From the UHGV virus genome UHGV-1369056: DNA of 39,253 nucleotides; one strand, given 5' to 3'. Of this stretch, positions 1-39,253 are shown in pieces. The stretch is from a virus. A program made the position numbers and the translations under genes. Within the stretch, counting starts at the first letter, position 1. Each line of letters begins with the position of its first letter. The notes beneath the pieces were generated by a model. That model searched no databases. It worked only from the letters and a program-made list of their open reading frames with translations, and was not told the DNA's origin.

Positions 1-78
1 ACAACCATAAGTCACAACCATAAGTCACAACCATAAGTCACAACCATAAGTCACAACCATAAGTCACAACCATAAGAC
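1..78. repeat. Tandem array of a 13-bp unit ACAACCATAAGTC (5 perfect copies plus 1 imperfect copy); the array continues across the window boundary
   Basis: Direct reading: units at 1-13, 14-26, 27-39, 40-52, 53-65, variant acaaccataagac at 66-78. The last 13 nt of the window (ataaccataagtc) are a further near-copy. Confidence 0.9.
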
Positions 79-8614: not shown

Positions 8615-9313
8615 ATGGCTAAAGAGCAACTGAAGACTTTCACCACTCCGGTAGCTGGTATCGTTGAGCCTTACGCATGGCTGAACAAAGCAGACACCAA
8701 GTTTAATGAGCGTGGTGAGCATAAGGTTAACCTGACGTTCGACCTGAGCAACCCGAAGGTCCGTAAGATGATTGATGTCTTACAGAAGATTCACGACGAT
8801 GCGTATGCGAAAGCACTCGCAGACCACGAGAAGAACCCACCTCAGGTTCAGCGTGGCAAGAAGCCTATTGAACCACGAGAAGGCGACATGCCGTGGATTG
8901 AGAATGGTGACGGTACTGTTACCCTGAAGTTTAAATGCTTTGCGTCTTACCTGAAGGATGGTAAGTCAGAGCCTATAGTATTACGGTTCTACGACACCGA
9001 TGCTAAGTTAATCCGTGACGTCCCGAATATTGGCGCTGGCTCCAAACTGAAGGTCAAGTTTAAAGTCCTGCCGTTCAAGTGGAACGCTGCGACTGGTGCA
9101 AGCGTTAAGCTCCAGCTTGAGTCATGCCTTCTGGTAGAACTGAAGGAGTGGAAAGGTGATGGTGCTGGTGGCGATGGTGGCTGGGGTGATGATGAAGACC
9201 TCGGTACTGGCTACAAAGCGTCAACCGATGGTGACTTCGGGTCTGATGACTTCGGTGACGATGGTTCCGAAGGTGGTGACGACTCTAACTCTGGTGGCGA
9301 TTACGACTTCTAA
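8615..9313 (+). CDS. 2.5: Single-stranded DNA-binding protein (T7 gp2.5 homologue)
   Basis: 232 aa; KKPIEPREGDMPW, GGSKLKVKFKVLPFKWNAATGASVKLQLES and an acidic C-terminal tail ending in DF, as in T7 gp2.5. Confidence 0.95.
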   Translation: MAKEQLKTFTTPVAGIVEPYAWLNKADTKFNERGEHKVNLTFDLSNPKVRKMIDVLQKIHDDAYAKALADHEKNPPQVQRGKKPIEPREGDMPWIENGDGTVTLKFKCFASYLKDGKSEPIVLRFYDTDAKLIRDVPNIGAGSKLKVKFKVLPFKWNAATGASVKLQLESCLLVELKEWKGDGAGGDGGWGDDEDLGTGYKASTDGDFGSDDFGDDGSEGGDDSNSGGDYDF

Positions 9314-9765
9314 TGGCCCAATGGTCTGCAAAACGGGGGCACTCTGTGGGTGCCTACCGCTCTGGACTTGAAGCCAAGAACCAGCAGTGGCTGGAACAGA
9401 ACGGCGTCAAAGCGGAGTACGAAAGCCATTATATCAACTATGTGATTCCGGCTTCCGACCACAAGTACACACCAGACTTTATCCTTCCTAACGGTATCAT
9501 CGTGGAGACCAAAGGTATCTTCGATAGTGATGACCGTAAGAAGCACCTTCTGGTACGAGAACAACACCCTGAGCTGGACATACGGTTCGTGTTCTCAAGT
9601 TCCCGCTCCAAGTTATACAAAGGGTCTCCGACCACGTATGGCGCATGGTGCGAAAAGAACGGCTTTAAGTTTGCCGACAAGTTTATCCCAGTTGAGTGGC
9701 TGAGGGAGGTGACTGTACGTCTTCCTTCCGGCATCCTCATCCCTAAGAAGAAAGGAGTTAAGTGA
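9313..9765 (+). CDS. 3: Endonuclease I, Holliday-junction resolvase (T7 gp3 homologue)
   Basis: VGAYRSGLE, YVIPAS.H.YTPDF.LPNGI.VETKG, DSDDRKKHLLVREQHPELDIRFVFSSSRSKLYKGSPTTYG match T7 endonuclease I. Confidence 0.95.
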   Translation: MAQWSAKRGHSVGAYRSGLEAKNQQWLEQNGVKAEYESHYINYVIPASDHKYTPDFILPNGIIVETKGIFDSDDRKKHLLVREQHPELDIRFVFSSSRSKLYKGSPTTYGAWCEKNGFKFADKFIPVEWLREVTVRLPSGILIPKKKGVK

Positions 9766-19926: not shown

Positions 19927-20811
19927 ATGTCTCAATCAGTTTATGCCGAGTTCGGCGTTAGCTCTAATGCAATCACTGGTTCCGTTGAGGACCTGAACGA
20001 ACACCAGAAGTCTATGCTTGAACAGGACGTAGCTGTTCGTGATGGCGACGACGCTATTACCTTCAAGCAACTGGAAGCCGAAAACGAAGAGGCGACCGAA
20101 GAAGACGAGAACGTCGAAGAGACTGAAGGTGAAGAAGACCACGAGTCCGATGACGAAGAGTCTGAGACCGATGGTGAGCAGCCTGAGTTCATCGAACTGG
20201 GTGATGCACCAAAAGAGCTGACCGAAAGTGTCACCGCTCTGGATGAAAACGAAGCTGCATTCGACGACATGGTGTCTTCTGCTGTAGAAGCTGGCAAGGT
20301 CACTGCTGATGAAATTACCGCTATCAAGGCTGAATACGCCAAGGACGGTAAGCTGTCTGATGCATCCTACGCTAAGTTGCAGGAAGCAGGTTACACCAAG
20401 CGTTTCGTAGATTCGTTTGTCCGTGGTCAGGAAGCTCTGGCTGAACAGTATGCTGCTGGTGTGGTTCGCTACGCTGGTGGTGCTGAACAGTTTAATCGCA
20501 TCCTGTCACACCTTGAGTCCAACGACCCATCAACTCGTGAAGCACTGGAAGCTGCTATCGTTCGTAAGGACATTGCGACTACCAAGGCTCTGCTGAATCT
20601 GGCTTGCAAGACTCTGGGTAAAGCTGTGGGTGTTAAACCTCAGCGTACCATCACCACTCAGGCTAAACCTGTGGTCGCACCTAAGGCTCCTCAGACCGAA
20701 GCATTCAGCTCCAAGTCTGACATGATTAAGGCTATGAGTGACCCGCGATACCTGCGTGACGCTAAGTACACGATGGAAGTTCGCGCTAAGGTAGCTGCCT
20801 CAAGCCTGTAG
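19927..20811 (+). CDS. 9: Capsid assembly (scaffolding) protein, gp9 homologue
   Basis: 294 aa, highly acidic N-terminal half (E/D-rich), position between portal and capsid genes. Confidence 0.85.
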   Translation: MSQSVYAEFGVSSNAITGSVEDLNEHQKSMLEQDVAVRDGDDAITFKQLEAENEEATEEDENVEETEGEEDHESDDEESETDGEQPEFIELGDAPKELTESVTALDENEAAFDDMVSSAVEAGKVTADEITAIKAEYAKDGKLSDASYAKLQEAGYTKRFVDSFVRGQEALAEQYAAGVVRYAGGAEQFNRILSHLESNDPSTREALEAAIVRKDIATTKALLNLACKTLGKAVGVKPQRTITTQAKPVVAPKAPQTEAFSSKSDMIKAMSDPRYLRDAKYTMEVRAKVAASSL

Positions 20812-20812
20812 G

Positions 20813-20835
20813 ACTAAACTATCACTATAGGGAGA
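20813..20835 (+). promoter_or_regulatory. Phage RNAP promoter with GGGAGA initiation region, ACTAAACTATCACTATAGGGAGA
   Basis: Best consensus copy; +1 to +6 GGGAGA as in the strongest T7 promoters; upstream of the major capsid gene (as T7 phi10). Confidence 0.9.
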
Positions 20836-20937
20836 CCAAGAGATAGACTCAAGGTTCCCCTATTACTTCAGTCCATACGGATTGGGCATACAGTAAGTAA
20901 TAAACTTTATCTTTCAATTGAATAGGAGAATTATCAT

Positions 20938-21981
20938 ATGGCAAACGTTCCGGGTCAGAAAATTGGTACAGACCAAGGTAAAGGCAAATCCAGTTCCGAC
21001 GCTCTGGCGTTGTTCCTGAAGGTATTTGCTGGTGAAGTCCTGACCGCATTCACTCGCCGCTCTGTAACTGCTGACAAGCATATTGTCCGTACCATTCAGA
21101 ACGGTAAGTCTGCTCAGTTCCCGGTCATGGGTCGCACCTCTGGTGTGTATCTGGCTCCGGGTGAGCGACTGTCCGATAAGCGTAAAGGTATCAAACATAC
21201 TGAGAAGGTGATTACCATTGATGGTCTGCTGACTGCCGATGTGATGATTTTCGACATTGAAGACGCGATGAACCACTACGACGTGGCTGGTGAGTATTCC
21301 AACCAGTTGGGTGAAGCTTTGGCTATCGCTGCTGATGGTGCGGTTCTGGCTGAAATGGCTACCCTGTGTAACCTCCCAGCTGCATCCAACGAGAACATCG
21401 CTGGTCTTGGAACTGCTTCCGTACTGCAAGTTGGTAAGAAAGCTGACCTCGACACCCCGGCTAAACTGGGCGAAGCAATCATCGGTCAACTGACCATTGC
21501 TCGTGCGAAGCTGACCTCCAACTACGTTCCTGCTGGCGACCGTTACTTCTACACCACACCGGACAACTACTCTGCAATCCTCGCGGCTCTGATGCCTAAC
21601 GCTGCTAACTATGCTGCGCTGATTGACCCAGAGACTGGTAACATCCGTAACGTGATGGGCTTCGTTGTTGTTGAAGTTCCGCATCTGGTACAGGGTGGTG
21701 CTGGTGAGACCCGTGGTGCCGATGGTATCACTATCGCTTCCGGTCAGAAACACGCATTCCCAGCGACTACTGCTGGCGACGTTAAAGTTGCTATTGACAA
21801 CGTTGTGGGCCTGTTCTCTCACCGTTCTGCTGTGGGTACTGTGAAACTGCGTGACTTGGCGCTGGAACGTGACCGTGATGTCGATGCTCAGGGTGACCTG
21901 ATTGTTGGTAAGTACGCTATGGGTCACGGTGGTCTGCGTCCTGAAGCGGCGGGCGCACTGGTTTTCAGCCCAGCGATGTAA
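20938..21981 (+). CDS. 10A: Major capsid protein 10A
   Basis: 347 aa; ALFLKVF.GEVLTAF, GKSAQFPV.GRT, HTEKVITIDGLLTADV, DIEDAMNHYDV, AAILAALMPNAANYAALIDPE, NVMGF.VVEVPHL, HRSAVGTVKLRDLALER, KYAMGHGGLRPEAAG are near-identical to T7 gp10A. Confidence 0.98.
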   Translation: MANVPGQKIGTDQGKGKSSSDALALFLKVFAGEVLTAFTRRSVTADKHIVRTIQNGKSAQFPVMGRTSGVYLAPGERLSDKRKGIKHTEKVITIDGLLTADVMIFDIEDAMNHYDVAGEYSNQLGEALAIAADGAVLAEMATLCNLPAASNENIAGLGTASVLQVGKKADLDTPAKLGEAIIGQLTIARAKLTSNYVPAGDRYFYTTPDNYSAILAALMPNAANYAALIDPETGNIRNVMGFVVVEVPHLVQGGAGETRGADGITIASGQKHAFPATTAGDVKVAIDNVVGLFSHRSAVGTVKLRDLALERDRDVDAQGDLIVGKYAMGHGGLRPEAAGALVFSPAM

Positions 21982-22112
21982 GCGCCTTTAGCCAACCTAA
22001 CGTCGCTACTGTAGCGGCTGTACCTGAAGAGGAGACTCTAACTCCTCAACAGAAAGCTGCGCGTACTCGTGCTGCGAACAGGGCCGCTAAACTGGCTGAG
22101 TCCAACAACTAA
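20938..22112 (+). CDS. 10B: Minor capsid protein 10B, produced by -1 ribosomal frameshift near 21960-21966 (G GTT TTC)
   Basis: Heptamer G GUU UUC lies in the 0 frame 15 nt before the 10A stop. The -1 frame is open to TAA 22110-22112 and encodes ...EETLTPQQKAARTRAANRAAKLAESNN, matching the T7 10B extension (EETLTP.Q.AARTRAAN). Confidence 0.65.
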
Positions 22113-22116
22113 TTGA

Positions 22117-22156
22117 AACCCCTTGGGTGCCTTCGGGTGCTTGAGGGGTTTTTTTT
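22117..22156 (+). terminator. T-phi-like late terminator
   Basis: aaCCCCTTGGGtgccttcgggtgcTTGAGGGGTTTTTTTT: GC-rich hairpin plus T-run, very similar to the T7 T-phi sequence (AACCCCTTGGGGCC...TCTTGAGGGGTTTTTTG) and in the same place after the capsid gene. Confidence 0.9.
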
Positions 22157-22166
22157 CGGAGGATTA

Positions 22167-22598
22167 ATGAAGGTATGTATAGGATGCCACACGGAGAAGG
22201 ACTTGGGGTCTTTCACGCCAAATGGCAGGACATGTAAGGGCACACAGAAATACAGAAGCAGATGCCGAGAGTGCGAGAACTCAAGGCAGGCTGCCATACG
22301 AGAGGAAGCTCCCAACAAATCACGATACTCAGCGGAAAGACTTAAAGGCTACCAACTTAAAAGCTCGTTCGGTATGACATATGACGAGTGGTTCTCCCTT
22401 ATGGAGTCTCGTGGTTGGGCCTGTGAGATTTGCTCGCGAACAGTAGAGACATCTGGTAGAACACTGGCTGTAGACCACAGTCACTCCACTGGTGAAATAC
22501 GAGGCGTGCTTTGTCAGAGGTGCAACTGTGCCATAGGACTCCTAAGTGAGAATCCAGAGCATATTGCAAACGCTATACGCTACCTTAAAGGAGATTAG
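22167..22598 (+). CDS. HNH endonuclease (endonuclease VII-like), probable homing endonuclease
   Basis: HNH motif AVDHSHSTGEIRGVLCQRCNCAIG plus N-terminal Cys cluster CIGCH...C...CREC. ATG 22167 with SD ggagga is preferred over 22113, which lies in the terminator. Codon usage atypical for this genome (aga, agg, ata). Confidence 0.8.
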   Translation: MKVCIGCHTEKDLGSFTPNGRTCKGTQKYRSRCRECENSRQAAIREEAPNKSRYSAERLKGYQLKSSFGMTYDEWFSLMESRGWACEICSRTVETSGRTLAVDHSHSTGEIRGVLCQRCNCAIGLLSENPEHIANAIRYLKGD

Positions 22599-22600
22599 TA

Positions 22601-23167
22601 ATGGCTCAATACATTCCACTGAATGCTAACGATGACTTAGACGCCATCAACGATATGTTAGCTGCTATCGGTGAACCAGCAGTCCTACAGCTTGACGAGG
22701 GGAACGCTGATGTCTCGAACGCTCAACGTATACTGCATCGTGTCAATCGTCAGGTCCAAGCTAAAGGCTGGAACTTTAACATCAACGAAGCTGCTGTCCT
22801 GACACCTGATGTCCAAGACAATAGGATTCGATTCCTTCCGTCATACCTTCGTGTAATGACTGCTGGGGCCACCAGCTACTACAGCAACATGGGTGGATAC
22901 CTGTACGACCTGTCCACTCAGTCAACCACTTTCACTGCCCCTATCACGGTAGAGCTTGTGGAGATGAAGCCATTCTCCGAGATGCCTGTGGTCTTCAGGG
23001 ACTACATCGTCACTAAAGCTAGCCGTGAGTTCAACGCTAAGTTCTTCGGTAGCCCAGAGTCAGAGCTATACCTTCGTGAGCAGGAAGCAGAACTCTATCA
23101 GCAGGTTATGGAGTACGAGATGGACACTGGTCGCTACAACATGATGTCAGACATCGGGAGGGACTAA
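22601..23167 (+). CDS. 11: Tail tubular protein A, gp11 homologue
   Basis: 188 aa; INDMLAAIGEP, RILH.VNRQVQAKGWNFNI, RDYIVTKASREFN.KFFG.PE and MEYEMD.G.YNM match T7 gp11. Confidence 0.93.
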   Translation: MAQYIPLNANDDLDAINDMLAAIGEPAVLQLDEGNADVSNAQRILHRVNRQVQAKGWNFNINEAAVLTPDVQDNRIRFLPSYLRVMTAGATSYYSNMGGYLYDLSTQSTTFTAPITVELVEMKPFSEMPVVFRDYIVTKASREFNAKFFGSPESELYLREQEAELYQQVMEYEMDTGRYNMMSDIGRD

Positions 23168-23394
23168 TGGCTAGTCACAACCTGAAGATTCACCGCCAGC
23201 ACTTTGGTCCGGTACAGCTAGGTCTAAAGACAGCAGAGCTGAGACTTAACGACCGGGACTTTAAGGTTGGCGATTGGCTTATCCTGAATGAATGGGACAA
23301 CGGGTATACTGGACAACAGGTAGCGCGTAAGGTTGTCCACATTGCTGACGTTGGTGACATCGCTGAAGGATACGTCCTAATGAGTATGATTTAA
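23167..23394 (+). CDS. DUF3850-like (ASCH/PUA-like fold) small protein
   Basis: 75 aa; LKIHRQHFGPVQLGLKTAELRLNDRDFKVGDWLILNEW fits my recollection of the DUF3850 pattern (H.LKI.P.YF..V..G.KT.E.R.NDRDF.VGD.L.L.E); start overlaps the gp11 stop (TAATG). Confidence 0.55.
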   Translation: MASHNLKIHRQHFGPVQLGLKTAELRLNDRDFKVGDWLILNEWDNGYTGQQVARKVVHIADVGDIAEGYVLMSMI

Positions 23395-23403
23395 GGAGGG
23401 CCT

Positions 23404-25761
23404 ATGCCACTAATTACTCAATCAATCAAGAACCTTAAAGGTGGCATTAGCCAGCAGCCTGATATACTGAGGTTCTCAGACCAAGGCGAGGCACAGGTTA
23501 ACTGCTGGTCATCCGAGAGTGATGGCCTCCAGAAGCGCCCACCTACAGTCTTCAAGAGACGTCTTAACATCGACGTTGGGAGTAACCCTAAGTTCCACCT
23601 GATTAACCGTGACGAGCATGAGCAGTATTACATCGTGTTCAATGGGTCCAACATTCAGGTAGTTGACTTGAGTGGCAATCAATACTCAGTGTCCGGTGCG
23701 GTAGATTACGTTAAGTCCTCCAACCCACGAGATGACATCCGTGTCGTTACCGTGGCAGACTATACGTTCGTCGTTAACCGTAAGGTTGTCGTCAAAGGTG
23801 GGAGCGAGAAGGCACACTCTGGTTATAATCGTAAAGCTCGTGCTTTAATTAACCTGCGTGGTGGACAGTATGGTCGCACCCTTAAGGTAGGAATAAATGG
23901 AGGCGTTAAGGTAGAGCATAAGTTGCCAGCAGGTAATGATGCCGAGAATGACCCTCCTAAGGTTGATGCTCAGGCTATCGGTGCGGCTCTGAGAGACCTT
24001 CTTGTTGCTGCTTACCCTACCTTCACGTTCGACCTTGGGTCTGGATTCCTGCTAATCACAGCTCCTTCAGGGACTGACATTAACTCAGTGGAGACGGAGG
24101 ATGGCTACGCTAACCAGCTAATAAGCCCAGTCCTAGACACTGTGCAGACAATCTCTAAACTACCTCTTGCAGCTCCTAATGGGTATATCATTAAGATTCA
24201 AGGTGAGACAAACAGTAGCGCCGATGAATACTACGTGATGTATGACTCCAACACTAAGACGTGGAAGGAGACAGTGGAGCCGGGAGTTGTCACTGGTTTC
24301 GATGCCACCACAATGCCACATGCTCTGGTCAGACAGCCTGATGGCTCCTTTGAGTTCAAGACTCTGGACTGGTCTAATCGTGGTGCTGGTAATGATGACA
24401 CAAACCCTATGCCTAGCTTCGTGGATGCTACAATTAACGATGTGTTCTTCTACAGGAATAGGCTGGGGTTCTTGTCAGGCGAGAACGTAATCATGAGCCG
24501 TTCAGCCAGCTACTTTGCGTTCTTCCCTAAGAGTGTGGCGACATTAGGTGATGATGATCCTATTGACGTAGCTGTAAGTCACCCTAGAATCTCAATCCTT
24601 AAGTATGCCGTTCCGTTTAGCGAGCAGCTACTACTTTGGTCAGATGAGGTGCAGTTCGTGATGACAAGCTCAGGGGTCCTTACCTCGAAGTCTATCCAGC
24701 TTGATGTAGGCTCAGAGTTTGCCTTAGGAGATAATGCCCGACCGTTCGCTGTAGGACGCTCAGTCTTCTTCTCAGCACCTCGTGGGTCATTCACCAGCAT
24801 TAAGCGATACTTCGCTGTAGCAGATGTGTCTGACGTGAAGGATGCCGATGATACCACTGGTCACGTACTGTCCTATATCCCTAACGGGGTGTTTGACATT
24901 CAGGGAACAGGGACTGAGAACTACATCTGCGTCAACTCTACAGGTTCATACAACCGAATCTACCTCTACAAGTTCTTGTTTAAGGACGGCATACAGCTTC
25001 AAGCCTCTTGGTCGCACTGGGAGTTCCCTAAAGCTGATAAGATTCTGGCGTCTGCGTCGATTGGCTCTACCATGTTCATTGTTCGTCAGCACCAAGGCGG
25101 CGTGGACCTTGAGCACCTTAAGTTCATCAAGGAGGCAACTGACTTTCCATTAGAGCCGTATAGACTCCACGTTGACTCCAAGGTGTCTATGGTAATACCA
25201 ATTGGCTCATACAACGTTGACACACATAAGACTACGGTTGACATTGGTGCTGCTTATGGTGGCAACGCTCCGTCTCCCGGTCGGTACTATCTGATTGACA
25301 GTCAGGGTGCTTATGTGGACCTTGGGGACTTGACTAGTATCTCTACTGTGGTTACCCTCAACGGCGATTGGTCAGGACGCACAGTGTTCATCGGACGGCC
25401 CTATCTGATGTCCTACAAGTTCTCACGGTTCCTGATTAAGATTGAAGATGATAGGGGCACTCAGTCGGAAGACACTGGTCGTCTACAGCTTCGTCGGGCT
25501 TGGGTCAACTACAAAGACACTGGCGCTCTGAGACTCATTGTCAGAAATGGTGAGCGGGAGTTCGTGAATACCTTCAACGGGTACACCCTTGGTCAGCAAA
25601 CCATCGGGACTACAAACATTGGTGACGGGCAGTATCGCTTCGCTATGAATGGTAACGCATTAACCACGAGTCTAACCTTAGAGTCCGACTATCCTACCCC
25701 AGTGTCAATCGTTGGGTGTGGCTGGGAGGCGTCATACGCTAAGAAAGCTCGTTCCGTCTAA
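23404..25761 (+). CDS. 12: Tail tubular protein B, gp12 homologue
   Basis: 785 aa in the gene 12 position, the size of T7 gp12 (794 aa); SD aaggaggg. Confidence 0.9.
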   Translation: MPLITQSIKNLKGGISQQPDILRFSDQGEAQVNCWSSESDGLQKRPPTVFKRRLNIDVGSNPKFHLINRDEHEQYYIVFNGSNIQVVDLSGNQYSVSGAVDYVKSSNPRDDIRVVTVADYTFVVNRKVVVKGGSEKAHSGYNRKARALINLRGGQYGRTLKVGINGGVKVEHKLPAGNDAENDPPKVDAQAIGAALRDLLVAAYPTFTFDLGSGFLLITAPSGTDINSVETEDGYANQLISPVLDTVQTISKLPLAAPNGYIIKIQGETNSSADEYYVMYDSNTKTWKETVEPGVVTGFDATTMPHALVRQPDGSFEFKTLDWSNRGAGNDDTNPMPSFVDATINDVFFYRNRLGFLSGENVIMSRSASYFAFFPKSVATLGDDDPIDVAVSHPRISILKYAVPFSEQLLLWSDEVQFVMTSSGVLTSKSIQLDVGSEFALGDNARPFAVGRSVFFSAPRGSFTSIKRYFAVADVSDVKDADDTTGHVLSYIPNGVFDIQGTGTENYICVNSTGSYNRIYLYKFLFKDGIQLQASWSHWEFPKADKILASASIGSTMFIVRQHQGGVDLEHLKFIKEATDFPLEPYRLHVDSKVSMVIPIGSYNVDTHKTTVDIGAAYGGNAPSPGRYYLIDSQGAYVDLGDLTSISTVVTLNGDWSGRTVFIGRPYLMSYKFSRFLIKIEDDRGTQSEDTGRLQLRRAWVNYKDTGALRLIVRNGEREFVNTFNGYTLGQQTIGTTNIGDGQYRFAMNGNALTTSLTLESDYPTPVSIVGCGWEASYAKKARSV

Positions 25762-25768
25762 CTTATTG

Positions 25769-25818
25769 AAGGGCCTATAGATTTACCTTAACTATCACTA
25801 TAGGGACTATAGGCCCTT
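25769..25818 (+). promoter_or_regulatory. 12-bp perfect inverted repeat (aagggcctatag / ctataggccctt) bracketing a phage promoter
   Basis: Arms at 25769-25780 and 25807-25818; the promoter core lies in the ~26-nt loop; only read-through transcripts from upstream would contain both arms. Confidence 0.5.
25786..25808 (+). promoter_or_regulatory. Phage RNAP promoter, CCTTAACTATCACTATAGGGACT
   Basis: Consensus match; upstream of gene 13 (as T7 phi13). Confidence 0.8.
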
Positions 25819-25837
25819 AAGGTTATAAGGAGACTTT

Positions 25838-26308
25838 ATGTATATTCGCAAGGCTACGGAACCAGATGTCCACTACTTTCTGTGGCATCTTTCAGCAGAT
25901 GATGTTAATGAGTGCAAAGCAAACTATGGGTCAACCGTGGGTCTCTCTGAGAGACTGCTTAAGCACCTATCCCCATCATCTGTGGTTTTAACGAACGGTG
26001 TAGGTGAAGTGTTTGCCTATGGTGGAAACCAAGGGGATAACGTATGGTTCTTGACTTCTGGTCTGGTCCACAAGCTGAGACCTAAAGAGAAGCGAGAGTT
26101 CATAAAGCGTATCTCTGAGTACAGGGACTTAATGTTAGACCAATACGGGACCATCTGGAACTACGTGTGGTCAGGCAATAAGTCTCACATTAAATTCTTG
26201 AAGTTGCTTGGGGCTAAGTTCCATGATGATTGGACTATCAGCCCGGTAACTGGTGAGCGTTTTCAATTATTCACTATCTCTAAGGAGGACGTATGTGTGA
26301 ACCCGTAA
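25838..26308 (+). CDS. 13: Internal virion protein A (gp13-like), by position
   Basis: 156-aa ORF between gp12 and gp14 with SD aaggagac; assignment positional only. Confidence 0.55.
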   Translation: MYIRKATEPDVHYFLWHLSADDVNECKANYGSTVGLSERLLKHLSPSSVVLTNGVGEVFAYGGNQGDNVWFLTSGLVHKLRPKEKREFIKRISEYRDLMLDQYGTIWNYVWSGNKSHIKFLKLLGAKFHDDWTISPVTGERFQLFTISKEDVCVNP

Positions 26309-35730: not shown

Positions 35731-36168
35731 ATGCTCGAATTTTTAAAGAGAGCGGCTCCGTGGTTACTTGCAGCAGTGATGTTTGCTGGTGGCTACCACA
35801 CCGCTAACAATAAGTGGGAGGCTAAGGTCAATGCAGAATACACCTCGAATCTTAAGGCATCGGAAGATACAAGGCTTGCTGTCCAAGCTGAAGTCAACAA
35901 AGTGTCCAAACGGTTTCAGGACGAAATGTCCTCGTTGGAAGGCAGCACTGATAGGATTATTGCTGACCTTAAGTCTGACAATAAGCGGCTGCGCGTCAAG
36001 GTCAACACCTCAGGTCTCACCGAGTCAGATGTCAGTCGATGCTTCCCTAATGGTAGAGTCGAACTACACCCAGAAACTTCTAAAAGTCTTATCCGAATAA
36101 CTCAGGAGGCAGACCTTAAGGAGAAGGCGCTTCAGGACACAATAAGGAGGCTCCAAGGTGTTAAGTGA
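35731..36168 (+). CDS. 18.5: i-spanin (Rz-like, gp18.5 homologue)
   Basis: 145 aa, N-terminal transmembrane segment (WLLAAVMFAGGY), coiled-coil-like remainder; position after gene 18. Confidence 0.8.
   Translation: MLEFLKRAAPWLLAAVMFAGGYHTANNKWEAKVNAEYTSNLKASEDTRLAVQAEVNKVSKRFQDEMSSLEGSTDRIIADLKSDNKRLRVKVNTSGLTESDVSRCFPNGRVELHPETSKSLIRITQEADLKEKALQDTIRRLQGVK
35831..36100 (+). CDS. 18.7: o-spanin (Rz1-like lipoprotein, gp18.7 analogue) embedded in the +1 frame of gene 18.5
   Basis: Embedded ORF contains a signal-like KAALIGLLLTLSLTISG followed by Cys (lipobox-like ISGC; Cys codon at 35990-35992) and a Pro/Ser-rich mature part. Start uncertain (ATG 35831 or 35783). Confidence 0.5.
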   Translation: MQNTPRILRHRKIQGLLSKLKSTKCPNGFRTKCPRWKAALIGLLLTLSLTISGCASRSTPQVSPSQMSVDASLMVESNYTQKLLKVLSE

Positions 36169-36595
36169 TTACTACAAAGTGGACCAGGCGAGTCCATCCG
36201 GTCTGGTCTCCGTTAGGACTGGAAAGCCTGTGGGGACATTAAGTCGGATGGGATATTGGATAGTACAGACACGAAGTCTAGGCAGTAAGCGGGCACATCG
36301 CGTGATATGGGAACTAACCAATGGTCCTATACCACATGGTATGCAAATAGATCACATCGACAGGAACCCCAGCAATAATACCTTAAGTAACTTACGGCTC
36401 GTTACTGCCGCTGAGAACACTTGGAATACGGGTAGCCATTATGACTCTAAGACGGGAGTGAAGTGCGTTACCCGTCACCAGAATGGTTATAGGATTCAGG
36501 TTAAACGCGGGAATGTCTATATGCGAACAACACGTCCTACTTTAGAGGAGGCTATCTCTGTCCGGGACCTAATGCTGGAGGGACTCTATGTCTAA
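36158..36595 (+). CDS. HNH homing endonuclease
   Basis: HNH motif [26 protein letters not shown]; GTG start at 36158 with strong SD aaggagg 7 nt upstream, overlapping the 18.5 stop; codon usage atypical (ata, agg, aga); inserted between 18.5 and 19. Confidence 0.8.
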
Positions 36596-38354
36596 GAAAA
36601 CACCTGTTGAAAGACAGGCAGAAATGACCCGAAGGATGAGGGACGACTTCGTATTCTTCATCTTCGTTCTCTGGAAAGCTCTTAGCCTTCCGGTTCCAAC
36701 ACGCTGCCAGATAGATATGTGTAAGAAGCTGGCTGCTGGGGATAATCGCCGCTTCATCCTTCAGGCTTTCCGTGGTATCGGCAAGTCGTTTCTGACCTGT
36801 GGTTTCGTGGTCTGGAAGTTATGGAACAACCCAGACTTGAAGTTCATGATTGTGTCGGCCTCAAAGGAACGAGCCGATGCGAACTCCATCTTCATCAAGC
36901 GAATCATCGACCTCATGCCTCAGCTTCAGGAACTCAAACCTAAGCAGGGACAGCGAGATGCGGTTATTAGCTTCGACGTTGGGCCAGCCAAGCCAGACCA
37001 CTCACCTTCGGTTAAGTCTGTTGGTATCACTGGTCAGTTGACTGGTAGTCGTGCTGACATCCTGATTGCCGATGACGTGGAGGTTCCGAACAACTCAGCG
37101 ACTCAGGCTGCCAGAGACCGTCTGTCAGAGCTTGTGAAAGAGTTCGACGCTATCCTGAAGCCGGGAGGTACAATCATCTATCTGGGTACTCCTCAGAACG
37201 AGATGACCTTGTATCGTGAGCTGGAAGGCCGTGGATACACCACTACTATCTGGCCTGCTCGTTATCCACGTGATAAGAAGGACTGGCAGTCTTACGGCGA
37301 CCGTCTGGCACCGATGCTTCAGGCAGAGCTGGAAGAGGACCCTGAGTCCTTCTACTGGCGTCCTACCGATGAAGTACGATTCGATGATACGGACCTGAAG
37401 GAACGTGAGCTGTCTTATGGTAAAGCTGGCTTCGCTCTACAGTTCATGCTTAACCCTAACCTGAGTGATGCCGAGAAGTACCCTCTGAAGCTCCGTGACC
37501 TTATCGTAGCAGACTTGGACCCAGCGTCTAGCCCAATGGTCTACCAATGGCTTCCTAACCCTCAGAACAAGCGTGAGGACGTTCCTAACGTTGGACTCAT
37601 GGGTGACTCATACCACACGTATCAGACTGTAGGTTCTGCCTTCAGCTCGTACACCCAGAAGATTCTGGTCATTGACCCTAGTGGTCGTGGTAAGGATGAA
37701 ACTGGATATGCGGTACTATACCAGCTCAACGGCTACATCTTCGCTATGGAAGTTGGTGGTATGCGTGGAGGTTATGAAGACTCTACTCTGGAAGCTCTGG
37801 CTAAGATTGGTCGTAAGTGGAAGGTCAACGAATACGTCATTGAGGGTAACTTCGGTGATGGTATGTACCTTGAGTTATTCAAGCCTGTAGCGGCCCGTAT
37901 CCATCCTGCGGCTGTAACTGAAGTGAAGAGTAAGGGTCAGAAGGAACTCCGCATCTGTGACGTTCTGGAGCCTATCATGGGGTCTCACAGACTTATCGTT
38001 AACGCTGCTGCTATCGTCCAAGACTACCAGTCAGCCTCTGATAAGGATGGTGTTCGTAACCCTATCTACTCTCTCTTCTACCAGATGACCCGTATCTCTC
38101 GTGAACGTGGAGCCTTGGCACACGATGACCGACTTGATGCGCTGGCTATCGGTGTACAGTTCTTCGTTGAGTCTATGGCTAAGGATGCCAACAAAGGCGA
38201 ACGTGAAGTCACTGAGGAGTGGCTGGAGGAACAGATGGAGAACCCACGGAAAGGCTTCGAGTCCATCCACACTGAGTTCTGGGACAATGGGGTCCGAGTA
38301 ACTCACGATACGGACGACGAGCTGGGACTAGGGGCCTACGTTACGTTTCACTAG
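36588..38354 (+). CDS. 19: Terminase large subunit (gp19 homologue)
   Basis: 588-aa ORF in the gene 19 position (T7 gp19 is 586 aa); Walker A-like QAFRGIGKS and Walker B-like ILIADDVE. Confidence 0.97.
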
Positions 38355-39005: not shown

Positions 39006-39253
39006 TGGCTCCTTAAGAGGGACGATGAGTTTTGGACCAAAAGTTTGAGACCACATCTCACAGTTCAAGAACCTCAAGTCTCCCCATAGGCCCTCTTTAA
39101 GTCCAGACCAAGGCCCTACCCCAGTCTATCATAAGGTTGGACCGGCTGTAAATACCTCAAGTCAACGATAGGTCATGACTATCGGTGGTGGTGGAGACGA
39201 TAGGTAGGGACTATTGGTCTGCCTCTGAGTCTCTATCTGTATAACCATAAGTC

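Follow-up and report, generated by a model that had tools for sequence, protein, structure and literature searches.

A probable free-standing homing endonuclease gene of the Endo VII/DHHRN family behind the T-phi terminator of a Kayfunavirus genome

The window studied here, that is, the whole stretch of DNA analysed (UHGV virus genome UHGV-1369056), is a complete-length T7-like phage genome of 39,253 bp. Its nearest GenBank relatives include the Kayfunavirus phages BDX03P1, CY1 and EcoDS1, which are 93-94% identical to it across some 90% of its first 25 kb, and the genome is a metagenome-derived Kayfunavirus. Between the capsid gene and gene 11, directly after the terminator T-phi, lies an intact open reading frame (ORF) of 143 amino acids (aa), to which a preliminary description of this DNA had drawn attention and which both the ORF list and the fold of the terminator confirm (Table 1). 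Judging from the genes and genomes compared, this ORF most probably constitutes a homing endonuclease gene (HEG), free-standing and of the Endo VII/DHHRN family, that invaded the T-phi/gene 11 spacer. This lineage of a gene type already known is rare and occurs specifically in the spacer that follows T-phi. The identical protein is encoded on two metagenome contigs, and a 39,239-bp ENA metagenome scaffold presents it with an identical neighbouring gene order.

The locus is compact. The ORF starts 10 nucleotides (nt) 3' of the T-run of the terminator and its stop codon lies 2 nt 5' of the gene 11 ATG. The terminator hairpin, which forms the left border of the insertion, has a predicted folding free energy of -27.5 kcal/mol (z -3.4 versus shuffled sequences) and matches both the annotated phiTE of EcoDS1 and the annotated terminator of Penshu1. 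A 1.9-kb query across the locus matched 335 GenBank phage records, from the best 40 of which coverage was read; in 176 of the 335 the best match is at least 99% identical and, for the listed records, it corresponds to a stretch of about 55 nt that holds the terminator. Three minus-strand ORFs over the locus (69, 51 and 56 aa) were considered and rejected as unsupported, all recognised genes of this phage type being on the plus strand, and an Rfam scan of positions 20700-23500 returned only a chance snoZ6 match (E 0.85).

The encoded protein matches Pfam PF02945 (Endonuclease_7) well above the cut-off (70.1 versus 23.6 bits; E 1.6e-19), with residues 64-141 aligned to positions 4-81 of the 82 in the profile, and PHROG families labelled 'endonuclease VII' reach E 2e-32. 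The sole match in PADLOC is a type II restriction enzyme model (REase_II; E 1.7e-11, positions 66-186 of 190), and no NCBIfam model matches the protein. The motif quoted in the preliminary description (DHSHSTGEIRGVLCQRCNCAIG) corresponds to residues 103-124. In an alignment of 15 homologues, residues C86, C89, D103, H104, R112, C116, C119 and N120 are invariant, and H106 nearly so; the catalytic residues are intact. The cysteine pairs make up two Cys4 zinc sites: (i) C4/C7 with C33/C36, which is the N-terminal cysteine cluster already noticed and is invariant across eight orthologues; and (ii) C86/C89 with C116/C119, whose two pairs (C86-x2-C89 and C116-x2-C119) flank the DHxH motif in the CX2-4C/CX2C arrangement expected of zinc ligands. 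The N-terminal zinc repeat, in which a weak Pfam His_Me_b4a2 match was detected (E 1.2e-4, under the cut-off), is probably a DNA-reading module, by analogy with repeat 1 of the restriction enzyme Hpy99I.

Strictly, the protein belongs to the Endo VII/'DHHRN' branch and not to the canonical H-N-H family. Endo VII-type enzymes do not have the central Asn of H-N-H (PMC6083498, PMC2699513), and no Pfam HNH model matched in a search with E up to 1. Having been called an HNH endonuclease, the protein therefore deserves that label at superfamily level only: it carries an Endo VII-type beta-beta-alpha-Me motif with all the catalytic residues, but not a canonical HNH. In the AlphaFold model (mean predicted local distance difference test, pLDDT, 88.7), strands 101-104 and 111-115 followed by helix 117-121 build this beta-beta-alpha-Me arrangement, and the top matches of Foldseek in the PDB are Hpy99I (probability 1.0) and T4 Endo VII (probability 0.99). 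By sequence, the best solved structure is again Hpy99I (E 3.3e-10; residues 2-39 versus 76-113, and 80-141 versus 134-196), while the match to T4 Endo VII is weak (E 0.005; residues 77-127 versus Endo VII 14-69). No paralogue of the gene was found in the window by tblastn.

The preliminary description had pointed out that T7 has no gene at this position; in fact, the ORF is an insertion with respect to almost all relatives and is not universal at the locus. Thirty-nine of the 40 best listed records (out of 335) cover 77-78% of the 1.9-kb query, the missing portion being about the length of the ORF, and Penshu1 is the only one among these 40 to exceed 80%. The empty allele of EcoDS1 consists of the T-run, then TGCTTAAAGTGAGAGGAGACTT and then the gene 11 ATG: a clean 22-nt spacer versus 447 nt in the window. 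The empty spacer of Teseptimavirus EG1 has 20 nt (GCTTAAAGGAGGAACTAT after the T-run) and, in general terms, the spacer measures 16-22 nt when empty versus 447-449 nt when occupied. Two other spacer states are found in Kayfunavirus: (i) 16-17 nt (TGCTTAAGGAGGGCCT); and (ii) some 120 nt that code for a hydrophobic peptide about 30 aa long. All in all, the T-phi/gene 11 spacer looks like a hot spot for accessory genes. The hydrophobic ORF (e.g., MFYLLTALGLFVSFWAIILLTGPCSPYDR) occupies positions 1877-2000 of record L018, 1871-2000 of L027 and 1873-2000 of L031. Besides, a Kayfunavirus subgroup (L023-L025, L028-L032 and L040) has a different and longer sequence from 10A to T-phi, with an alternative 10B-type extension, and the spacer TGCTTAAGGAGGGCCT; no endonuclease carrier was seen in this subgroup.

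Apart from empty and occupied alleles, the junctions of related phages include deleted and scarred ones. In Penshu1, 247 nt have been deleted between two GAAATAC repeats, with the result of a frameshift and the loss of the active site; when the same 247-nt deletion is applied to a P0001-type gene, the product differs from Penshu1 at 4 of 218 positions. In YZ1, a 51-nt scar is composed of the first 19 nt of the cassette plus its 3' end, including the window-specific variant GGAGATTAGTA. As far as annotation is concerned, the 40-aa 'hypothetical protein' of Penshu1 (L001; 1167-1289) is the frameshifted N-terminal remnant of the endonuclease, the YZ1 spacer is likewise a relic of the gene, and the 'tail tubular protein A' coding sequence of Penshu1 (1299-1922) has been annotated 57 nt too long, with its start within the remnant. 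No intact orthologue was found in 50,697 GenBank phage records, where the best tblastn match besides the Penshu1 remnant is about 38% identical; neither was an intact copy detected in GenBank phages at DNA level by blastn. Nor was any description of an endonuclease gene at the T-phi/gene 11 site found in the literature searched, in which homing endonucleases in the late regions of T7-like phages have been called 'unusual' (PMC5923468).

The lineage itself is small within a very large family. A word-indexed search of 5.8 billion proteins returned seven close clusters (64-97% identity over the aligned core; about 24 members), and in an exhaustive search of 1.84 billion representatives at 50% identity the lineage amounts to one representative. 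The next matches among the best 150 are mostly 31-46% identical, with one partial match at 56%, and the broad family comprises 24,947 clusters at E <=1e-10. An orthologue-alignment scan of the 2.9 million viral contigs of IMG/VR yielded only one 29%-identical relative and no extra contexts.

In all the contexts retrieved, which represent the seven clusters, the gene sits 13-21 nt after the T-run of T-phi and abuts or overlaps gene 11. At least five differing T7-like backbones carry the lineage: (i) Kayfunavirus (gene 11 begins MAQYIPL); (ii) a Teseptimavirus EG1-like phage (gene 11 begins MRSYDMN), the GenBank relatives of which are all without the gene (75% coverage); (iii) a phage with a capsid gene nearest to that of Przondovirus; and three further types besides. 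The layout of the cassette is constant too. A purine-rich box resembling a Shine-Dalgarno (SD) sequence is present at the same place in all 11 carrier loci compared, and all carrier loci have conserved Y-L codons followed by the gene 11 SD. Most copies of the ORF overlap gene 11 by 4-38 nt. An earlier stop characterises a derived variant common to the window and the YZ1 scar. The resemblance of the gene 3' end (TACCTTAAAGGAG…) to the empty spacer (TGCTTAAAGTGAG…) could be taken to mean that this end is retained native sequence, an option rejected on the grounds that the Y-L codons are conserved in distant homologues and in Hpy99I. These codons belong to the gene, and the insert's right border can be placed only to within about 10-20 nt.

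Concerning selection and movement, pairwise ratios of nonsynonymous to synonymous substitutions (dN/dS) among orthologues, for pairs with unsaturated dS, range from 0.06 to 0.18: the endonuclease protein is under purifying selection. The identity of the gene and that of its flanks disagree in both directions. Carriers L004 and L005 have endonuclease genes with 100% nt identity, within a 626-nt mismatch-free tract that begins 129 nt upstream of the gene and ends 33 nt downstream of it, together with 92.7% identity in gene 10A and 97.9% in gene 11. The opposite is true for the window and carrier L010, whose endonuclease genes are 76.6% identical (dS about 1.6) and whose flanks are 95.3% (gene 10A) and 96.8% (gene 11) identical. 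Repeated transfer of the cassette with short co-converted flanks would produce such patterns.

The codon usage (frequent aga, agg and ata) had been described as different from that of the neighbouring structural genes, and so it is. AGA/AGG account for 7 of the 14 Arg codons versus 13.4% in the other 46 genes (Fisher p 0.0014) and ATA for 5 of the 7 Ile codons versus 11.2% (p 0.0004), while genes 9 and 10A contain none of these codons. The ORF ranks second among 47 genes for AGA/AGG/ATA and fifth for overall atypical synonymous usage. This usage, foreign to that of the late genes, is supportive but not decisive.

The window contains the phage promoter consensus (…CTAAACTATCACTATAGG) in eleven copies, none of them between positions 20831 and 25783. 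Since there is no promoter between T-phi and phi13, the endonuclease gene, gene 11, a 75-aa ORF and gene 12 depend on read-through transcripts. In T7, the expression of genes 11 and 12 by terminator read-through is established. The expectation of the preliminary description that the gene would be expressed mainly by read-through holds, then, in that no promoter separates it from T-phi, but there is nothing special about it: as the promoter positions indicate, read-through dependence is a property of the whole block and not of the endonuclease gene alone.

Taken together, the locus displays the features by which homing genes are recognised: (i) a presence/absence polymorphism with a precise empty allele; (ii) the same site in divergent genomes; (iii) discord between gene and flanks; and (iv) degenerate copies. 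The mobile homing-endonuclease gene proposed at the outset is hence the interpretation favoured here, with considerable confidence. As the characterised members of its family suggest, the protein should cut duplex DNA in a metal-dependent reaction, in which D103 and N120 would hold the metal, H104 would act as general base, and H106 and R112 would assist. Upon co-infection with a gene-less relative, the enzyme would cut the empty allele, either in the T-phi/gene 11 junction or close to it, and repair from the HEG-carrying genome would copy the cassette plus short flanks into the cut genome. Carriers would be immune in that the insertion separates the two halves of the site. The cost to the phage would be low: T-phi stays intact, the gene brings its own ribosome-binding site, and it provides a new one for gene 11. 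Transcription would take place late, with genes 11 and 12, by T-phi read-through from the phi9/phi10 promoters.

Several observations weigh against this interpretation. Homing (cleavage, target and gene conversion) is here a prediction from gene and genome comparison, for the window protein as for its orthologues. Ordinary homologous recombination, frequent among T7-like phages, could likewise have given rise to the mosaic identities and to the tract without mismatches. Atypical codons are no hallmark of mobile elements, since they also occur in several small early genes, in the HNH_3 nuclease gene (Table 1) and in the tail fibre gene. The lineage is carried by only some 20 contigs, with none close in IMG/VR and none intact in GenBank, a modest success for a supposedly invasive element. 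The fold is shared by restriction enzymes and junction resolvases, and dimerisation is putative. Finally, global superposition is poor (template modelling score, TM, 0.28 on Hpy99I with a root-mean-square deviation of 20 Å; TM range 0.28-0.31), presumably owing to a different orientation of the repeats in the free monomer model; as the global TM is low, only local fold similarity is claimed.

As regards the target, the carriers share no substitution that would set them apart from all the empty alleles in the 170 nt upstream or the 560 nt downstream: every base common to all carriers is also found in at least 7 of 16-17 HEG-less genomes. In consequence, protection by site disruption is more likely than protection by point mutation, although the target is not located thereby. 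The empty alleles of Kayfunavirus EcoDS1 and Teseptimavirus EG1 do not differ in the junction sequence CTTGAGGGGTTTTTTGCTTAAAG. This conservation, like that of the terminator stretch of about 55 nt mentioned above, together with the lack of carrier-specific substitutions, places the candidate target at or near the empty T-phi/gene 11 junction (with the sequence TTTTTTCGGAGGATTAATGAAG). Free-standing endonucleases often cut at some distance from their own genes. According to the model, cutting would occur only in the empty allele, within tens of nt of the T-run/GCTTAAAG junction. A narrower proposal, put forward tentatively and with the odds rather against it, is that the homing site is the junction of the T-phi terminator and the gene 11 leader itself (…CTTGAGGGGTTTTTTGCTTAAAG…), that is, a conserved regulatory non-coding sequence instead of a gene. 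If true, such a non-coding target would explain the presence of the lineage in several T7-like genera. The T7-terminator cassette of common expression vectors carries a similar sequence, and T7-type orthologues might cut expression plasmids with a T7 terminator. In a more extreme variant of the proposal, the Endo VII-like enzyme would recognise the inverted repeat of the terminator as a DNA structure.

Among the explanations other than homing, the one that survives best, although improbable, is a domesticated weapon that cuts competing T7-like phages (partial exclusion) or host and plasmid DNA, copying being a by-product. Purifying selection would suit such a role, as would the match to a restriction enzyme model in PADLOC and the position of the insert behind the most conserved non-coding element of the group (the stretch of about 55 nt described above); nevertheless, the rarity and repeated deletion of the lineage speak against a strong benefit, and neither a methyltransferase nor an immunity gene is adjacent, the neighbours being capsid and tail genes. 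In any case, the mechanisms of weapon and homing overlap, and sequence alone separates them poorly. Less probable is an ancestral, non-mobile gene of the group lost in most lineages and maybe inactive or unexpressed behind the terminator. Deletions are indeed documented (Penshu1, YZ1), a position behind a strong terminator limits transcription and, across genera, the identity of the endonuclease (62-74% aa) is of a similar order to that of the capsid protein (67-73% aa). But endonuclease genes that are 100% identical accompany capsid genes that have diverged by 7%, and two lineages of the gene that are 23% apart sit in nearly identical flanks; as the discord runs in both directions, vertical descent does not fit. 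In addition, the codon usage is not that of the late genes, read-through is enough for expression, given that genes 11 and 12, which are essential, also follow this terminator, and the low dN/dS speaks for production and use of the protein. As to a structure-specific enzyme of the kind of T4 Endo VII, a junction resolvase or debranching enzyme devoted to recombination and pre-packaging DNA trimming, the name of the Pfam family, the PHROG labels and the catalytic residues common to both enzymes fit it, but it can be given hardly any weight given that the window already encodes endonuclease I (Table 1), the alignment with Endo VII is confined to the short stretch given above with no counterpart of the dimerisation domain, the motif is C-terminal as in the 'endonuclease clade' and not as in the 'resolvase clade', and the gene is missing in nearly all close relatives and decays where present.

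Regarded as a homing endonuclease gene, the ORF offers nothing new in principle, since free-standing HEGs are common in phages and those with an Endo VII motif had already been predicted in T7-like phages. Its value lies in the natural series found at one site (intact gene, internal deletion, scar, empty allele and two diverged gene lineages in one genus), so that the cycle of invasion and decay, as well as co-conversion, can readily be studied in a phage group that is tractable. Should the T-phi/gene 11 junction prove to be the target, the protein would be a compact (143 aa), possibly useful site-specific nuclease, and its gene would exemplify homing into a regulatory spacer next to a terminator with neither termination nor downstream translation being impaired.

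Table 1. Features of the window mentioned in the text (positions in the 39,253-bp stretch; residues refer to the 143-aa endonuclease protein)
Feature	Position	Strand	Remarks
Left-end tandem repeats	1-78		six copies of the 13-nt unit ACAACCATAAGTC
Endonuclease I (T7-type resolvase)	9313-9765		E 1.7e-81
phi10-like promoter	20810-20831	+	last promoter upstream, before gene 10; repeat family with promoter consensus
Capsid gene 10A and putative 10B-extension region	10A 20938-21981; region to 22112	+	left flank; ORF list and EcoDS1/Penshu1 annotation; 10B frameshift extension assigned by correspondence to relatives
T-phi-like intrinsic terminator for phage RNA polymerase	22115-22156	+	17-bp stem, UUCG loop, T8 run; left border of insertion
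SD of the endonuclease gene (GGAGG)	22158-22162	+	4 nt 5' of ATG; part of inserted cassette; read from sequence
Endonuclease ORF	22167-22598	+	ATG 22167, TAG 22596-22598; 143 aa; intact
N-terminal zinc repeat (residues 1-60)	22167-22346	+	C4, C7, C33, C36
Direct repeat GAAATAC (7 nt)	22247-22253 (copy 1); 22494-22500 (copy 2)	+	ends of the Penshu1 deletion
Catalytic beta-beta-alpha-Me domain (residues 64-141)	22356-22589	+	zinc ligands C86, C89, C116, C119
DHSH active-site motif (D103, H104, H106)	22473-22484	+	R112 at 22500-22502; N120 at 22524-22526
SD of gene 11 (AAGGAG)	22588-22593	+	within the last endonuclease codons (…YLKGD*), 7 nt 5' of ATG 22601; read from sequence
Gene 11 (tail tubular protein A)	22601-23167	+	right flank; Pfam Tube, E 3e-46
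75-aa DUF3850/ASCH-like ORF	23167-23394	+	between genes 11 and 12
Region without gene 13.5	25761-26308		compared with EcoDS1 25883-26260
phi13-like promoter	25783-25804	+	next promoter downstream, before gene 13; repeat family with promoter consensus
Rz-like gene	35731-36168		overlapped by the HNH_3 gene
HNH_3 nuclease gene	36158-36595	+	Pfam HNH_3, E 6.7e-21; atypical codon usage
Terminase large subunit gene	36588-38354		overlapped by the HNH_3 gene
Right end of the window	39241-39253		last 11 nt (AACCATAAGTC) match 11 nt of the left-end unit

Some other features of the window deserve mention. The 75-aa ORF, called 'RNA-binding protein' in some records, is missing in carrier L010 and constitutes another variable small gene of the block. 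A second nuclease gene, unrelated to the one behind T-phi, is located between the Rz-like gene and the gene of the terminase large subunit; Hafnia phage Ca has a spontaneously deletable 397-bp homing endonuclease gene at the equivalent position (PMC8861465). With respect to the ends of the window, which share 11 nt of a tandemly repeated unit, the assembly was probably cut inside a terminal-repeat or concatemer-junction region. The genome lengths of the window and EcoDS1 differ by 1 bp, by coincidence.

Other Endo VII-type genes are known in Studiervirinae, for example: (i) gp13.5 of EcoDS1 and gp34 of Klebsiella phage kpssk3, which lie between genes 13 and 14; and (ii) those of Teetrevirus 2050H2 and ECA2, between genes 18.5 and 19. 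They are alike in family, size (about 125-145 aa) and sporadic presence at intergenic positions of the late operon, but they are 37-38% identical, occupy different sites and none of them is found in the window. Window and EcoDS1 differ reciprocally in this regard: the former does not have gene 13.5 (a 38% identical paralogue), and the latter does not have the gene at the T-phi site.

The DHHRN homing endonuclease family has been defined around F-CphI of cyanophage S-PM2 by the D-H-H-R-N residue set, which in T4 Endo VII corresponds to D40, H41, H43, R54 and N62; its 'endonuclease clade' has a C-terminal motif and is found in podoviruses whose genomes code for endonuclease I as well (Fang et al. 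2018, PMC6083498). Like the members of this family, the window protein is small, phage-encoded and furnished with a C-terminal Endo VII motif, with D-H-x-H, R and N between CxxC…CxxC, and it fits the 'endonuclease clade', which includes T7-like podoviruses with endonuclease I. The likeness to F-CphI is based on the description of the family (PMC6083498), and the window gene is free-standing in an intergenic spacer behind a terminator.

With Hpy99I (PDB 3FC3/3GOX), whose C-terminal two thirds it resembles in architecture, the window protein shares both zinc repeats and the C-terminal …YLK helix; D148, H149 and N165 of Hpy99I, essential according to mutagenesis (PMC2699513), correspond to D103, H104 and N120, and the first beta4-alpha2 repeat of Hpy99I, a reader of bases in the major groove, to the C4/C7/C33/C36 repeat. 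Unlike Hpy99I, it does not have the N-terminal beta-barrel (there is no counterpart of Hpy99I residues 1-75) and it has no partner methyltransferase, its neighbours being the capsid and tail tube genes of a lytic phage.

T4 endonuclease VII (gp49), in turn, resolves junctions, has its catalytic domain at the N-terminus and its dimerisation domain at the C-terminus, and is conserved within its own group of phages. Both proteins have the catalytic beta-beta-alpha-Me core, the zinc site and the DH-H-R-N residues. By contrast, in the window the motif is C-terminal, the alignment with Endo VII is partial and weak, nothing corresponds to the C-terminal dimerisation domain, the gene is sporadic, and endonuclease I is encoded separately.

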